A program made the translations under genes and the position numbers. A DNA stretch of 64,000 bases, from assembly GCA_041665545.1 (NCBI GenBank), contig JBAYIQ010000001.1, forward strand, positions 137,911-201,910, in the 5' to 3' direction. The DNA is from Patescibacteria group bacterium (GTDB taxonomy: Bacteria; Patescibacteriota; Patescibacteriia; UBA1558; GWA2-36-10). Shown piece by piece: positions 3,443 to 58,757 of the stretch. The notes under the pieces are model-generated. The model made no database searches, was not told where the DNA came from, and saw only the letters and a list, made by a program, of their open reading frames with translations. How positions within the stretch are numbered: the stretch's first letter is position 1; the number at the start of each line of letters is the position of its first letter.

Positions 3443-4123
3443 TTATAATAAATAACGACCGTGCGTTTGATCACTGATCACATAACCATGATCTAAGGTT
3501 ATGACGCGACTCTTTAAATTATTAACCACATCCCGATTGTGAGTCACCAGCAAAACAGTAGTGCCCATACTATTTATTTTTTTCAACAAGTCAATAATAT
3601 CTCGCGTATTGATAGAATCCAAATTTCCAGTCGGTTCATCGGCCACTAGTAGTTTTGGCTTGTGCACCAAGCTACGACCAATAGCTACTCTCTGCTGTTC
3701 ACCGCCAGATAATTGATGGGGATAGCGATCGCCCTTGTCTTTGAGGCCAACCAGGGAAAGCATCTGTTGGGCTGTTTTGATAATTTCTTTTGGCTTATAG
3801 CCACAAACCTCCAAAGCAAAGGCAATATTTTCATAGGCCGTTTTTTTCGGCAACAACTTATAATCTTGAAAAATTATTCCCAATTGCCTACGCAAGGTTG
3901 GTATCTCATAATCCTTAATATTAGTAATGTCCCAGCCCCCTATTATTATTTTGCCAGAAGTGACTTTTTCTTCAGCAATAATTAACTTAATCAGGGTGGA
4001 TTTTCCACTACCGCTTTGACCAACTACAGAAATAAACTCACCTGGCAATACTTTCAAACTAACATCCTTTAGGGCCTGAATATTTTTTTTGTAAATTTTC
4101 GATAAATTAGTTATTTCAATCAT
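3443..4123 (-). CDS. ftsE: cell division ABC ATPase FtsE
   Basis: Walker A GQSGSGKST, signature LSGGEQQRVAIGR, Walker B LLVADEPTGNLD, about 226 aa. Confidence 0.9.
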   Translation of the reverse strand: MIEITNLSKIYKKNIQALKDVSLKVLPGEFISVVGQSGSGKSTLIKLIIAEEKVTSGKIIIGGWDITNIKDYEIPTLRRQLGIIFQDYKLLPKKTAYENIAFALEVCGYKPKEIIKTAQQMLSLVGLKDKGDRYPHQLSGGEQQRVAIGRSLVHKPKLLVADEPTGNLDSINTRDIIDLLKKINSMGTTVLLVTHNRDVVNNLKSRVITLDHGYVISDQTHGRYLL

Positions 4124-7453: not shown

Positions 7454-8425
7454 ATGGATAATTTTTGGGAAAAACTTAAACCACCCATTCTGACCACCAC
7501 GCCAATGGCGGGAATTACTGACTCGGCCTGGCGCCAACTCTGCAAAAAATGGGGTGCTGATGTGGTTTATACTGAATTCGTGTCGGTCGATGCTCTGTTT
7601 TATGATAGCAAAAAAACCTTGCAAATGCTGGAGTACAAAGCTAGTGAACAGCCAATTGTTGCCCAAATCTTTGGCAAAAGAAGCGATTTGTACCCCAAGG
7701 CCGCTAAACTAATTGAAAAACTCGGTTTTACTGGCGTGGACATAAATTTCGGCTGTCCAGCCAAAAAAGTAGCTGGCCATGGCGGTGGTATATGCCTACT
7801 CCGCGATATGGATACTGTCAAAAAAATAGTAGCCAATACTATTGAAGCAGTGACAATTCCAGTTTCCATAAAAACTAGAATTAGCTTGAATGCTGTGTCT
7901 GGATCTCCAGAAAAGGGAAAAATTACGGCCGTAGATTTATTAGATGCCTTGCAGGATTGTCCCCTAGCCGCGATTATTGTCCATGGACGCACCTATGAAA
8001 CTCCTTTTGCTGGCCCTGTTGACTTAGAAATGTTAAAAAATTTGCGTGAAAAATTCACTAAAGGAATATTTTTAATCAATGGCTCTTTTCAAAGTGTAGA
8101 ATCAGTAGTCAGTGATTTACAATACACCCAAGCTGATGGCATTGCCTTGGCTAGATCGCTCTATGGTAGGCCATGGATATTCAAACAAATCAAAGATTAT
8201 TTATTGACTGGGCAGTATCAAGAAATTACTTGGCCGGAAATAAAAGCTACTGCTATTGAGCATGCTCACCTGCTCTACGAAAATAAAGGGCCAAAAGGTT
8301 TTCAAGAAATGCGTAAACATTTATTATTTTATGCCAAAGGCCATCCTCAGGCCAGCTCACTCCGATACAGTTTGGTAAGAGTAAACACTCCACAAGAAGT
8401 AGAAAAAATATTCTCGGAAATATAA
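7454..8425 (+). CDS. dus: tRNA-dihydrouridine synthase
   Basis: TTPMAGITDSAWRQL, FGCPAKKV, TIM-barrel Dus motifs. Confidence 0.85.
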   Translation: MDNFWEKLKPPILTTTPMAGITDSAWRQLCKKWGADVVYTEFVSVDALFYDSKKTLQMLEYKASEQPIVAQIFGKRSDLYPKAAKLIEKLGFTGVDINFGCPAKKVAGHGGGICLLRDMDTVKKIVANTIEAVTIPVSIKTRISLNAVSGSPEKGKITAVDLLDALQDCPLAAIIVHGRTYETPFAGPVDLEMLKNLREKFTKGIFLINGSFQSVESVVSDLQYTQADGIALARSLYGRPWIFKQIKDYLLTGQYQEITWPEIKATAIEHAHLLYENKGPKGFQEMRKHLLFYAKGHPQASSLRYSLVRVNTPQEVEKIFSEI

Positions 8426-19379: not shown

Positions 19380-19530
19380 ACTTATTTAATAAACATGATA
19401 GTTTAACACTTTTTAACAGATTAGTCAATATATTTTTATTATAGCATATTTAACTATTTAATTAAACAAAAAACCAGTTAAAAAACTGGAGAAAAATAAC
19501 CGACTAGAAATGCAAAAAATAACTTATTAT

Positions 19531-19663
19531 CTCGTGCCCTTCGACGCTGAATGTCCCTCGACTTCGCTCGGGACACTCGATTCTTCAGAGTCGAATGGTC
19601 GGAGGTGCTGATAAGCACCGTAGACCACGAGTGAGACTTTTGCGAAGCAAAAGGCGAATCGAG
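19531..19663 (-). repeat. tRNA-3'-adjacent structured element, copy 1 (immediately follows CCA of tRNA-Thr; followed by terminator)
   Basis: RNA sense CTCGATTCGCCTTTTGCTTCGCAAAAGTCTCACTCGTGGTCTACGGTGCTTATCAGCACC...GAATCGAGTGTCCC..GGGACA..CACGAG; three hairpins plus two crossing long-range helices. Confidence 0.7.
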
Positions 19664-19739
19664 TGGAGCCGTCTCGCGGGCTTGAACCGCGGACCTACGC
19701 CTTACCATGGCGTTGCTCTACCAACTGAGCTAAGACGGC
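19664..19739 (-). tRNA. tRNA-Thr (anticodon GGT)
   Basis: cloverleaf GCCGTCT/AGACGGC acceptor, anticodon loop ATGGTAA, T-loop GGTTCAAGCC, CCA encoded. Confidence 0.85.
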
Positions 19740-19754
19740 ATATAAATTAAATAT

Positions 19755-19879
19755 CTCGTGCCCTTCGGCTCACTCCGTTCGCTCAGGGCATTCGACTCCT
19801 TCGAGTGGTCGAAGTCCGAGGCAAAGCCGAGGGCGCAGACCATGAGCGAAGTTCCGAGCCTGCGAGGAACGGAGTCGAA
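19755..19879 (-). repeat. tRNA-3'-adjacent structured element, divergent copy 2 (between tRNA-Tyr and tRNA-Thr)
   Basis: starts CCATTCGACTCC right after ACCA and pairs with downstream GGAGTCGAATGG; shares CCATTCGACTC, GAGCGAA and terminal CGAAGGGCACGAG with copy 1. Confidence 0.55.
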
Positions 19880-19965
19880 TGGTGGGTGGAGAAGGATTCG
19901 AACCTTCGAAGGCGTATGCCAACAGATTTACAGTCTGTCCCAGTTGACCGCTTTGGTATCCACCC
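19880..19965 (-). tRNA. tRNA-Tyr (anticodon GTA), type II with long variable arm
   Basis: GGGTGGA acceptor, anticodon loop CTGTAAA, variable arm, T-loop GGTTCGAATCC, CCA encoded. Confidence 0.85.
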
Positions 19966-19979
19966 AAAATAATAAATAT

Positions 19980-20222
19980 TTATTTTTTAAGCAACTTTTG
20001 AAAAGCTTCCCCGCCTTTGTACTTTTTAATCTGTAACTCCCTACGATAAGTATCATTACGATTATTAAAATTTTCAATATGCTTTATTACCCAGGAGATG
20101 CCATTTTTCGTAGATCTGACTTTACCAGCGTTATGCAACATTAATCTATTTTCTATATTTTTTGTATGACCAATATAATATCTATCTAACTTACTACTAT
20201 ATAAAATATAAACTACAAACAT
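19980..20222 (-). CDS. small GIY-YIG nuclease superfamily protein (YhbQ/UPF0213-like)
   Basis: FVVYILYSSKLDRYYIGHTKNIENRLMLHN = GIY-(10-11)-YIG spacing with downstream R and N; 80 aa; ends 14 nt upstream of tRNA-Tyr. Confidence 0.65.
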   Translation of the reverse strand: MFVVYILYSSKLDRYYIGHTKNIENRLMLHNAGKVRSTKNGISWVIKHIENFNNRNDTYRRELQIKKYKGGEAFQKLLKK

Positions 20223-28094: not shown

Positions 28095-28170
28095 TGGAGC
28101 CACCCGTCGGAATTGAACCGACAACCTATGGTTTACGATACCATTGCTCTGCCAGTTGAGCTAGGGTGGC
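28095..28170 (-). tRNA. tRNA-Thr (anticodon CGT)
   Basis: GCCACCC acceptor, anticodon loop ATCGTAA, T-loop GGTTCAATTCC, CCA encoded. Confidence 0.85.
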
Positions 28171-28196
28171 AAATTTATAACTTTAATTATAAGGTT

Positions 28197-28270
28197 TATC
28201 GCCCAGAGGGCGACCCCGTCCCGCAACGCGAGATGGCGACACCACTGCTCTACCAATTGAGCCCGCCCGG
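28197..28270 (-). pseudogene. fossil 5' half of tRNA-Thr(CGT)-like gene fused to GC-rich hairpins
   Basis: GCCGGGCGGGCTCAATTGGTAGAGCAGTGGTGTCGCCA resembles 5' half of adjacent tRNA-Thr, then GC hairpins GCCCAGAGGGC etc. Confidence 0.5.
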
Positions 28271-51382: not shown

Positions 51383-51507
51383 CTCGTGTCCCTCGACTCA
51401 CTCCGTTCGCTCGGGACACTCGATTCGCAGGAATGAGAATGGTCGGAGGTGCGATAAAGCACCGTAGACCACGAGTGAGTCTTTTGCAAAGCAAAAGGCG
51501 AATCGAG
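51383..51507 (-). repeat. tRNA-3'-adjacent structured element, copy 3 (immediately follows CCA of tRNA-Lys)
   Basis: about 88% identical to copy 1 over first 70 nt; compensatory changes in hairpins (GGTGC-TTTATC-GCACC vs GGTGCT-TATC-AGCACC). Confidence 0.7.
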
Positions 51508-51584
51508 TGGTGCGCCCAGTAGGATTCGAACCTACGACCGTTTGCTTAAAAGGCAACTGCTCTACCAGGCTGAGCTATAGGCGC
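51508..51584 (-). tRNA. tRNA-Lys (anticodon TTT)
   Basis: GCGCCTA acceptor, anticodon loop CTTTTAA, T-loop GGTTCGAATCC, CCA encoded. Confidence 0.85.
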
Positions 51585-57876: not shown

Positions 57877-58086
57877 AATACCACACGAAGATTTTTCCTA
57901 ATATTCAGCGTCCTTAGAACTCTTAAAACCGAGCTCCTGCCATTTAGACAAATCCCACTTTTGTGAATAAAATGGCACTTCTATTTTCACGGAATTTATT
58001 TCTTTTCTTATTATATAAAAACTGGCCGTCGCACCTGCCTGTCTGCCGATAGGCGGGCACTTGACCCAATAGCATATATTTACTAT

Positions 58087-58139
58087 CGAATGGTCGTAGA
58101 CCACGAGTGAGTCTTTTGCGAAGCAAAAGGCGAATCGAG
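58087..58139 (-). repeat. truncated copy 4 of tRNA-3'-adjacent structured element
   Basis: CTCGATTCGCCTTTTGCTTCGCAAAAGACTCACTCGTGGTCTAC then deletion of hairpin and distal half. Confidence 0.55.
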
Positions 58140-58224
58140 TGGTGGGCATAAGAGGACTTCCGCCTCCGCCCCTCACTTTGTTCGGGGCTATGGCGGACAG
58201 GCGAACCTCTGATTATTTTAGAAA
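58140..58224 (-). other. acceptor-stem-like structured element ending in GCCCACCA, 3' of tRNA-Val; pairs with sequence 5' of tRNA-Val (around 58340-58375)
   Basis: TATGCCC/GGGCATA, GGCGGAAG/CTTCCGCC, CCTGTCCGCC/GGCGGACAGG long-range complementarities flanking tRNA-Val. Confidence 0.4.
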
Positions 58225-58301: not shown

Positions 58302-58531
58302 ATATTAATAACCAACTGCTTGTCCGCCAAAGCTCCAAGGGAGCGACGGCGGAAGCTATATGCCCTTAAATAATAAACTACCGAAAATGGCTTAGCCATC
58401 CGTAGCTCCAAATAAAAATAACTATACTTTATACGTTTTGTCATCCTACTCCGCCAGCTGGCGGATATGGATGACATCCTTCGCACCGCGAAGGATGGTA
58501 AAAACCCTTAGCATTCAAAGCTATTTTCTTT

Positions 58532-58606
58532 TGGTGACCTCTAGGGGAATCGAACCCCTGTTGCCAGGATGAGAACCTAGTGTCCTAACCACTAGACGAA
58601 GAGGCC
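58532..58606 (-). tRNA. tRNA-Glu (anticodon CTC)
   Basis: GGCCTCT acceptor, D-loop AGTGGTTAGG, anticodon loop TTCTCAT, T-loop GGTTCGATTCC, CCA encoded. Confidence 0.85.
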
Positions 58607-58647
58607 AGAACCAAAAGAAAATAGCTTTTAGAATAAAGGTTGCCTGC

Positions 58648-58757
58648 CCGCCGAAGCTTTGAGCGTAGCGAGGAGCGAAGGCGGGAGAACCTGATGTCCT
58701 AACCGCTCGCCTCGCTTCGCGAGCGAAGCGGGTTAGACGATGGGGCCAAAACACTGG
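58648..58757 (-). pseudogene. fossil 5' half of tRNA-Glu with GC-hairpin insertion in D-loop and GC-rich tail
   Basis: GGCCCCATCGTCTAAC[CCGCTTCGCTCGCGAAGCGAGGCGAGCG]GTTAGGACATCAGGTTCTC vs tRNA-Glu GGCCTCTTCGTCTAGTGGTTAGGACACTAGGTTCTC. Confidence 0.5.

Follow-up and report, generated by a model that had tools for sequence, protein, structure and literature searches.

Folded non-coding elements directly behind the CCA ends of bacterial tRNA and tmRNA genes can pair with their own tRNA junction

Introduction

The CCA end of tRNAs is read by base pairing in two well-known systems: the UGGN sequence of the T-box antiterminator pairs with the NCCA of the tRNA, and the GGU in L15 of the RNase P RNA pairs with RCC. 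Downstream of tRNAs, 3′ external spacer (3′ETS) RNAs can act as regulatory RNAs, e.g., 3′ETS-leuZ of Escherichia coli. They are species-specific and act as sponges of small RNAs (sRNAs), they are not tied to the CCA junction, and they have no comparable conserved fold. Ribozymes of the hepatitis delta virus (HDV)-like type are found at the 5′ end of R2 and other non-long-terminal-repeat retrotransposons; such an element sits in a stable-RNA gene, shares its transcript and releases itself at the junction, sometimes with upstream host sequence as part of a helix. Another self-cleaving RNA, the theta ribozyme, has a size of about 50–60 nt. Theta ribozymes are minimal HDV-like ribozymes located 3′ of phage tRNAs and are essentially confined to phages; the CCA is encoded by only 4.5% of the theta-associated tRNAs, and none of 12 bacterial theta matches was linked to a tRNA (PMC10879173). 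The present analysis deals with repeated structured elements that directly follow tRNA genes in a stretch of 64,000 nucleotides of a Patescibacteria group bacterium (contig JBAYIQ010000001.1, positions 137,911 to 201,910; this whole stretch is called the window in the following). In the full-text literature that was searched no bacterial element of this kind was described, and the theta ribozyme was the sole analogue.

Results

A family of elements at the CCA ends of tRNA and tmRNA genes

A first-pass annotation of the window had proposed a conserved structured element that is fused to the 3′ CCA of tRNA genes. This proposal was borne out by the location of the copies as well as by covariation. 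Three copies of about 125–133 nt, named c1, c2 and c3, each start right after an encoded CCA (Table 1), and the repeats in the window belong to a large family of folded elements without coding capacity that are located at the CCA ends of tRNA and transfer-messenger RNA (tmRNA) genes. Across the family the length of the elements ranges from 72 to 168 nt.

Genomes were scanned with the pattern TCGAYTC..YTCRCTC..RTCGARTG....GAGCG, which begins at base +2 of the element and does not include the CCA. At least 114 stretches matched, so that the lack of homologues, which the first-pass annotation had considered, does not apply. All matches listed stem from metagenome-assembled genomes of uncultivated organisms, and their labels include many classes of Patescibacteria, Acidobacteriota, Armatimonadota, Bdellovibrionota, Planctomycetota, Verrucomicrobia, and others. 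These taxon labels were taken from the assembly records and are possibly wrong for some assemblies; several assemblies labelled “Gammaproteobacteria” look like Patescibacteria, and one of them has the gene order of the window and a DnaB that is 81% identical.

CCA followed by C or T precedes 113 of the 120 matches listed. The other seven are chance matches or are mis-anchored in the T-loop of the tRNA itself, and two mis-anchored matches (L161, L171) do hold real elements after a CCA. Altogether, 78 of the listed elements abut a tRNA called by ARAGORN, and 31 different anticodons are represented. In 71 of these 78 cases the CCA is the true encoded CCA at positions 74–76, while in seven cases the tRNA (mostly tRNA-Ala) has no encoded CCA, and the “CCA” consists of C71-C72 plus A73. 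About 12 elements abut the 3′ end of a tmRNA, after CCACCA or after CC plus the discriminator A, and the remaining elements adjoin tRNA-like 3′ pieces that carry insertions. The orientation was always tRNA-sense among the matches listed. Because the encoded CCA and C71-C72-A73 both serve, the element requires a CCA sequence at a tRNA-like 3′ end, whether or not this is the mature end.

Further collections were also scanned. A first, looser scan of metagenomes yielded 117 stretches, about 110 of which were chance matches in high-GC DNA; six were real (L049, L058, L069, L101, L102, L120), and all of them lie directly after the CCA of a tRNA or tmRNA. In viral contigs (IMG/VR) no copy was found, as early patterns gave six chance matches and later none, and no copy was matched in plasmid and phage collections.

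The conserved fold

A covariance model was built from 51 sequences, and the alignment that underlies the following numbers was model-based. The model recovered 106 sense-strand copies at 53–98 bits, while antisense overlaps scored 22–43 bits. The consensus starts directly after the CCA with Y1-UCGAYUC, the 5′ strand of helix P1, which is followed by hairpin A of variable sequence. Hairpin A is closed by N9 and the first base of segment J (UCRCUC). The next bases, R-UGG, open helix P3 (UGG..CC(A)), the inner pairs of which covary and which ends with a loop of 3–4 nt or with an inserted hairpin. After P3 there are a variable linker, GARUCGAR as the 3′ strand of P1, and a single invariant U. The P4 module is composed, in this order, of G-YCCY, GAGCGA, an optional P5 hairpin or a GNA loop, (GA)GUCGA and RGGRC.

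In the alignment of 106 sequences 89.6% of the cells were paired, compared with 76.2% in shuffles. The number of double-change cells was 471 versus 147 in shuffles, and none of 500 shuffles reached 471. When the partner columns were slid, pairing fell to 29–49%. Changes on both sides were present in all five helices, i.e., P1, hairpin A, P3, P4 and P5, and the covariation is thus real for each of them. This includes three helices that had been predicted from the window alone, namely the long-range helix P1, the hairpin CTTTTG..CAAAAG (hairpin A) and GTCCC..GGGAC (P4). On the tRNA-sense strand the ratios of G.U to A.C mismatches were 32:3 in P3, 53:0 in P4 and 12:0 in P5, an excess of G.U as expected of RNA.

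Two further predictions held only in part. The hairpin GGTGCT-TATC-AGCACC exists, but it is a lineage-specific insert in the loop of the conserved helix P3. The long-range helix CUCGUG:CACGAG can be formed in the window copies (with a mismatch in c2), but it is not a feature of the family, as an exact match of at least 6 bases was found in 8 of the 106 sequences.

Additional pairings of J were considered and rejected. A pseudoknot between J and the GAGYGAG of the P4 loop was discarded because the apparent covariation turned out to be the local P5 mini-hairpin (pairs −14/−8 and −13/−9); 31 sequences with an A at J position 4 still have GAGCG. Pairing of J with the 3′ strand of P1 was discarded because there was no covariation.

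Parts of the element were also observed separately. A P4-like module alone, at a distance from full elements and with the layout stem, GAGCG, 2 nt or hairpin, GUCGA, stem, is present in L137 (about 1156–1177), L174 (about 2614–2635), L148 (about 3697–3718) and L229 (about 1371–1392). A mini-variant in L151 (5576–5627) is composed of CCA, a plain 7-bp hairpin replacing the 5′ domain, one U, and the module.

Pairing across the tRNA junction

The most informative feature of the element had been missed by the first-pass annotation: R-UGG is complementary to CCA plus Y1, so that the element can pair over its own junction with the tRNA. The four-pair helix CCA-Y1:R-UGG (columns 2–5 with 65–68) was 98.6% paired in the 106 sequences. 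The Y1-R pair was U-A in 56 sequences and C-G in 50 sequences, without any exception, and the search pattern had specified neither the CCA, nor Y1, nor the R before UGG.

Y1 changes together with two purines, first the R at the end of the P1 3′ strand and second the R that directly precedes UGG. The respective triples were C/G/G in 57 and U/A/A in 54 cases, with 3 exceptions. In a crude tree that was built without these columns about 23 independent state switches were counted, which were always concerted with the P1 partner. The base 3′ of the CCA of P3 itself did not covary with the R before UGG. The UGG is invariant across the family, and its U is paired with A76 in 105 of 106 sequences, while pairing with the P3 partner is seen in no more than 55 of 91. 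A second triple showed the same behaviour, i.e., Y6, its P1 partner, and J position 4 (C-G 75, U-A 27, other 4). An extension of the CCA helix to the discriminator was rejected, because the base after UGG did not covary with N73.

The simplest reading would be that two mutually exclusive folds are both under selection, a 5′-domain hairpin and the P1 fold. In the former, the CCA of the tRNA and the 5′ half of P1 would be paired with J-RUGG. Alternatively, a groove triplex of J on P1 might explain the co-changing triples. Energy calculations were performed for both stages of transcription. For transcripts that end at UGG, the lowest-energy fold pairs CCA plus Y1 with RUGG in 98 of 105 cases, while at full length the P1 state is favoured by a mean of 9.5 kcal/mol. 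In the full-length P1 state the calculation also allows C75-A76 to pair with the invariant U-G behind P1. The order of folding suggested by these energies is that the junction pairing would form first and would later be replaced by the P1 fold.

Presence and absence at orthologous tRNA loci

Four syntenic regions of relatives, L240, L241, L242 and L243, were compared with the window; their DnaB proteins are 98, 89, 81 and 81% identical to that of the window, respectively. The gene for tRNA-Lys(UUU) is identical or nearly so in the window and in all four relatives. It is followed by c3 in the window, by a different, c2-like variant in L240, by another variant in L242, and by no element in L241 and L243. 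As an orthologous tRNA-Lys has a variant or nothing, the element is dispensable. The identity between L240 and the window is about 90–100% in the promoter, in the tRNA and from GUCGAGGGACACGAGAG onwards, but only about 50% in the interior of the element. At the same locus, about 95 additional nt separate the promoter from tRNA-Lys in L240 (about 7730–7830), and this insert looks like a degenerate copy of tRNA-Lys that bears a CCGCC..GGCGG hairpin.

A similar picture was obtained for the gap between tRNA-Glu and tRNA-Val. It comprises 1 nt in L241 and L243, while structured inserts of 130–230 nt are present in the window, L240 and L242. In L240 this spacer contains a 3′ fragment of tRNA-Glu and then a truncated element. 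Truncated elements, which lack the 3′ strand of P1 and P4, are also located directly after an apparently intact tRNA-Val in L240 and L242. Genomes contain 3 to 5 copies, and the copies within one genome have a common hairpin A sequence, while the strain with the 98% identical DnaB has another version. Taken together, the element is gained, lost and swapped, and it decays, as is typical of an accessory element that is mobile or subject to gene conversion. A tRNA-targeting mobile element had been one of the roles proposed initially, and this candidate gained support from the presence/absence patterns and the swapping of variants at orthologous tRNA loci.

Absence from RNA catalogues

The family is absent from Rfam 15 and from the literature searched. 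A search of the whole window at the gathering threshold yielded only tRNAs, and at E values up to 10 nothing relevant was found in the region 19450–19990. In 18 homologous loci only tRNAs and tmRNAs were matched at the gathering threshold, without overlap with the element. For a tmRNA-adjacent element (L208, labelled Pseudomonadota) again nothing relevant was found at E values up to 10. In these searches a weak match to the permuted-tmRNA model with 20.9 bits, overlapping the T-arm of the tmRNA, was dismissed. In the two element regions searched at E values up to 10, there was no match to the HDV family, nor to the hammerhead, hatchet, pistol, twister, twister-sister, hairpin and VS models. 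For the hammerhead core (CUGANGA), the VS substrate loop and the lambda boxB stem (GCCCU/AGGGC) some likeness was noticed, but no test supported it.

The copies in the window and their surroundings

The window has the content of an ordinary bacterial chromosome, including genes for aminoacyl-tRNA synthetases, DnaB and a Mur ligase, and the closest relatives according to DnaB are labelled Patescibacteria or Komeilibacteria. ARAGORN predicted six tRNAs, all on the minus strand. The features that are connected to the element are listed in Table 1.

Table 1. Coordinates of element copies and adjoining features in the window. Parts are listed in the direction of transcription; bit scores refer to the covariance model.
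Feature	Position	Strand	Remarks
tRNA-Tyr(GTA)	19880–19965	minus	CCA abuts c2; ARAGORN
c2	19755–19879	minus	T-type, other subtype; 87.3 bits
c2, P1 5′ strand	19879–19872	minus	
c2, hairpin A	19871–19851	minus	
c2, J	19850–19844	minus	UUCGCUC
c2, A-UGG	19843–19840	minus	
c2, P3	19842–19806	minus	
c2, P1 3′ strand	19798–19791	minus	
c2, single U	19790	minus	
c2, P4 module	19789–19760	minus	with P5 mini-hairpin
c2, tail	19759–19755	minus	ACGAG
tRNA-Thr(GGT)	19664–19739	minus	encoded CCA 19664–19666 abuts c1; ARAGORN, Rfam
c1	19531–19663	minus	C-type; 71.6 bits
c1, P1 5′ strand	19663–19656	minus	
c1, hairpin A	19655–19636	minus	
c1, J	19635–19629	minus	CUCACUC
c1, R-UGG	19628–19625	minus	
c1, P3	19627–19596	minus	
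c1, P1 3′ strand	19583–19576	minus	
c1, single U	19575	minus	
c1, P4 module	19574–19553	minus	minimal GAGCGAAGUCGA loop
c1, 3′ extension	19552–19531	minus	clade-specific; holds second GUCGAAGGGC and CACGAG
Terminator-like hairpin after c1	19489–19474		
Promoter-like site of tRNA-Lys	51636–51608		perfect TTGACA-17-TATAAT
tRNA-Lys(UUU)	51508–51584	minus	ARAGORN
c3	51383–51507	minus	C-type; 85.1 bits
c3, P1 5′ strand	51507–51500	minus	
c3, hairpin A	51499–51480	minus	
c3, J	51479–51473	minus	
c3, G-UGG	51472–51469	minus	
c3, P3	51471–51440	minus	
c3, P1 3′ strand	51426–51419	minus	
c3, single U	51418	minus	
c3, P4 module	51417–51388	minus	
c3, tail	51387–51383	minus	ACGAG
Terminator-like hairpin after c3	51363–51349		
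Pseudo-tRNA 3′ piece	58140–58224	minus	ends TATGCCC-A-CCA; read from sequence
c4	58016–58139	minus	36 bits, match spanning 58016–58143
c4, 5′ domain	58139 to about 58087	minus	intact: P1 5′ strand, hairpin A, J, G-UGG, short P3

A promoter-like site is located upstream of tRNA-Lys(UUU). Terminators had been predicted after c1 and c3, and terminator-like hairpins were indeed found there. It was also confirmed from the sequence that c2 directly precedes tRNA-Thr in one operon, as this tRNA begins 14 nt past c2 within the same transcription unit. The promoter-like site, the terminator-like hairpins and the tRNA-Thr after c2 place the elements inside of tRNA transcription units, and the element should be present in the transcript as a 3′ trailer of the tRNA.

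A fourth copy (c4) had been described as truncated. The copy is real, but it is a decayed full-length copy: its 5′ domain is intact, while the 3′ strand of P1 and the P4 region have decayed, as was seen from comparison with L167, L170 and L242. The copy adjoins the CCA of a piece that carries a T-arm-like AGAGG-TTCG[insert]AGT-CCTCT, and this ACCA-ended piece looks like the T-arm and the 3′ acceptor strand of a pseudo-tRNA.

The surroundings of c4 contain several additional structures. A split tRNA-like gene brackets the intact tRNA-Val; its parts are located at about 58357 (GGGCATATAGCT..) and at 58140–58210 (..AGAGGTTCG[insert]AGTCCTCTTATGCCCACCA), and its acceptor strands match (GGGCATA / TATGCCC). 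The 5′ part recurs in L240 with another D-loop insert, and the split gene could be either a broken tRNA or a wrapper around tRNA-Val. The gene for tRNA-Glu (58532–58606, minus strand) is flanked by the leader AAAGCTATTTTCTTT (58614–58628) and the trailer AAAGAAAATAGCTTT (58517–58531), which are perfectly complementary and form a 15-bp stem around the tRNA, like a processing stem of the rRNA type. The stem arms are also present in L240 and L242 and are absent from L241 and L243.

A second family of small GC-rich hairpins (CCGCC..loop..GGCGG) was found on the minus strand of the window at about 58650–58690, 58320–58350 and 58165–58205, and also in the spacers of L240, with the form CCTGCC..GGCAGG, and of L242. 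Within pseudo-tRNA pieces these hairpins occupy positions that resemble a D-loop or a T-loop, and they are also found in tRNA leaders. At a different site of the window, tRNA-Thr(CGT) (28095–28170) has no element after its CCA, and the region upstream of it (28171–28260, minus strand, TCAATTGGTAGAGCAGTGGTGTCGCC..) resembles a D-arm fragment of a tRNA that is followed by a GC-rich hairpin.

Discussion

The explanation that is favoured here is that the trailer RNA recognizes its own CCA|Y1 junction and is removed there, and that it persists at tRNA ends for this reason. A probability of roughly 0.4 is assigned to it. In the nascent transcript R-UGG would pair with CCA and Y1 and would thus sequester the CCA. 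Once the 3′ strand of P1 has been made, the more stable P1 fold would replace the junction pairing, and the trailer would be cut exactly at CCA|Y1. The tRNA would be freed either with its CCA or with a discriminator base to which CCA can be added, and owing to such a precise removal an essential RNA gene would not be harmed by the insertion. The cut would most likely be made by self-cleavage, a host nuclease that is guided by the fold being the less likely route. In its strongest form, this proposal would mean a new self-processing RNA, i.e., a CCA-guided ribozyme on a new bacterial selfish element that colonizes tRNA and tmRNA 3′ ends; this specific version is doubtful, and such a ribozyme would be unrelated to HDV, hammerhead and other known classes.

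Several points weigh against removal at the junction. The A76|Y1 step is inside or at the end of a helix in both supported folds, a geometry that is not obviously reactive, and none of the known ribozyme models in Rfam matches the element. Self-cleavage would leave a 2′,3′-cyclic phosphate on A76 that would need later removal. The truncated copies behind tRNA-Val are tolerated, showing that host enzymes can cope without a full element. The invariance of the core is in part an artefact of collection, as TCGAYTC, YTCRCTC, RTCGARTG and GAGCG were fixed in the search patterns, although the few matches that were found only by the model do vary at these positions (GAGUGA, GGCGAR, ACGG). Finally, on the tRNA-sense strand hairpin A has 11 A.C versus 1 G.U mismatches, opposite to P3, P4 and P5, and when the 5′ domain is reverse-complemented (GCCAY-GAGCGAR-hairpin-GAGUCGAR-UGG) it has the pattern of the 3′ P4 module. 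This inverted symmetry and the mismatch bias of hairpin A hint at an inverted-repeat logic at the DNA level.

Both features would fit to a non-autonomous mobile element of the MITE, REPIN or IS200/IS605-derived type that acts at the DNA level and for which the RNA structure is a by-product; MITEs and REPINs are likewise composed of inverted modules. Elements of the IS200/IS605 type integrate 3′ of a short target, which is not duplicated, and their cleavage site is paired with a guide that lies beside a hairpin. By the same guide and target logic, hairpins in single-stranded DNA would be read by a transposase that is encoded elsewhere, and R-TGG would guide it to a cleavage site 3′ of CCA. This possibility, although rather unlikely, would account for the presence/absence polymorphism and the cassette-like replacement at orthologous sites with a left boundary exactly at CCA|, for the 3 to 5 copies per genome, as in MITEs and REPINs, for the hairpin A that is common within a genome and different in the strain with the 98% identical DnaB, and for the decayed or truncated copies, some of which are carried with tRNA 3′ fragments. 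However, a target of 3–4 nt cannot explain that 113 of the 120 matches listed are located at tRNA or tmRNA ends, always in sense orientation, and a dispersal to many kinds of intergenic sites was not found. The core is conserved across phyla, unlike REP/REPIN elements, which co-evolve with a lineage-specific transposase, and the G.U mismatches far exceed A.C on the transcribed strand of P3, P4 and P5. No target duplication was present at the three window junctions or at the orthologous tRNA-Lys and tRNA-Val loci, inspection of 10 window proteins and of the Pfam labels in the gene neighbourhood revealed no adjacent transposase, and the plasmid and phage collections and IMG/VR yielded no copies.

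Clearly unlikely is a cis signal of benefit to the host, which would steer RNase P, RNase Z or RNase E, hide the CCA as long as folding is in progress, or act in termination or stabilization. In E. coli, tRNAs that lie close together in an operon are separated by RNase P, and the element is fixed at tRNA or tmRNA 3′ ends inside of transcription units, between tRNAs or before terminators; in addition, it pairs with the CCA, and P1 stacked on hairpin A would resemble the stack of acceptor stem and T-arm. On the other side, tRNA-Lys, tRNA-Val and tRNA-Glu lack the element in relatives with 81–89% DnaB identity, i.e., it is dispensable, and only 12 of 106 family members have another tRNA within 150 nt downstream. 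Mimicry of an RNase P substrate was judged unlikely, because the combined length of P1 and hairpin A varies, which is ill-suited to the length measuring of RNase P, and there is no NCCA after the 3′ strand of P1.

A release of the trailer as a stable trans-acting sRNA, the UGG of which would bind the CCA of uncharged tRNAs in the manner of a T-box, or the GA-rich hairpin module of which would bind a protein, is improbable. The UGG is invariant, the conserved P4 module is also found alone elsewhere in genomes (e.g., L137, L174), and regulatory tRNA 3′ spacers have a precedent in 3′ETS-leuZ, but the R before UGG covaries with Y1, which is present only in the unprocessed junction and not in the mature tRNA, and no covariation links the discriminator to the base that follows UGG.

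An HDV-like or theta-like self-cleaving ribozyme with a nested double pseudoknot, the layout favoured by the first-pass annotation, is very improbable and membership in this family was rejected: P1 does start at the first base past the tRNA, the CACGAG at the 3′ end of the window copy can pair with CUCGUG, and theta ribozymes are a precedent for a location behind tRNAs, but P2 (a tail complementary to CUCRUGG) is present in only about 8 of 106 sequences, from the window and from a few relatives within the Patescibacteria, has a mismatch in c2, and competes with P3 for the same UGG, position +1 is always a Watson-Crick-paired pyrimidine (U 56, C 50) and not the usual G, P4 runs straight into the ACGAG tail in c2 and c3 and leaves no J4/2 room for a catalytic C, there is no P1.1 but a single invariant U between P1 and P4, the HDV-family models of Rfam gave no match even at E values up to 10, and theta ribozymes are confined to phages, with the low fraction of CCA-encoding tRNAs and the missing tRNA linkage of bacterial matches mentioned above (PMC10879173).

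If the trailer does remove itself at the CCA, it would represent a new catalytic or nuclease-guiding RNA fold, and no chromosomal system of bacteria would have been known before in which the 3′ end of a tRNA or tmRNA is defined by its own trailer, by base pairing with the CCA. A DNA transposon would instead be a bacterial non-coding element of which the strict specificity for CCA ends of tRNA and tmRNA genes has no known precedent. In both cases RNA catalogues lack a family that occurs in Patescibacteria, Acidobacteriota, Planctomycetota, Bdellovibrionota and other phyla. In addition, the elements point to the DNA next to tRNAs as a hot spot of turnover, both in the organism of the window, which has a small genome, and in close relatives.

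Compared with known systems, the likeness to theta ribozymes lies in a structured RNA directly 3′ of a tRNA, in the proposed cleavage at its own first nucleotide and in a proposed role in trimming of the 3′ end. In contrast to theta, the present family is chromosomal, is 72–168 nt long, follows the CCA, has another fold and does not match the HDV model. With the T-box and L15 of RNase P it shares that the 3′ end of the tRNA is read through a conserved UGG:CCA Watson-Crick pairing, but here the pairing extends to the first base of the trailer and not to the discriminator, and it concerns the unprocessed junction in cis instead of a mature end in trans. A logic similar to that of R2 may apply, i.e., an insertion in a stable-RNA gene that frees itself at the junction; however, elements of the R2 type are autonomous retroelements of eukaryotes with an HDV fold, while the present family has no known protein-coding partner.

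REP/REPIN elements, PATEs and MITEs are also short, non-coding and present in multiple copies, they have inverted hairpin modules, presence/absence polymorphism and copies that are homogenized within a genome, and they insert by a short fixed sequence without visible duplication. The present family differs from them in that it is found only at tRNA and tmRNA 3′ ends and in sense orientation, that its core is conserved across phyla, that its helices mostly show the wobble bias of the transcribed strand, and that no linked transposase was identified among the proteins and Pfam labels inspected. With 3′ETS-leuZ of E. coli it has in common that a functional RNA would reside in the trailer of a tRNA transcript, but in contrast to the 3′ETS RNAs the present family is tied to the CCA junction and has a conserved fold.

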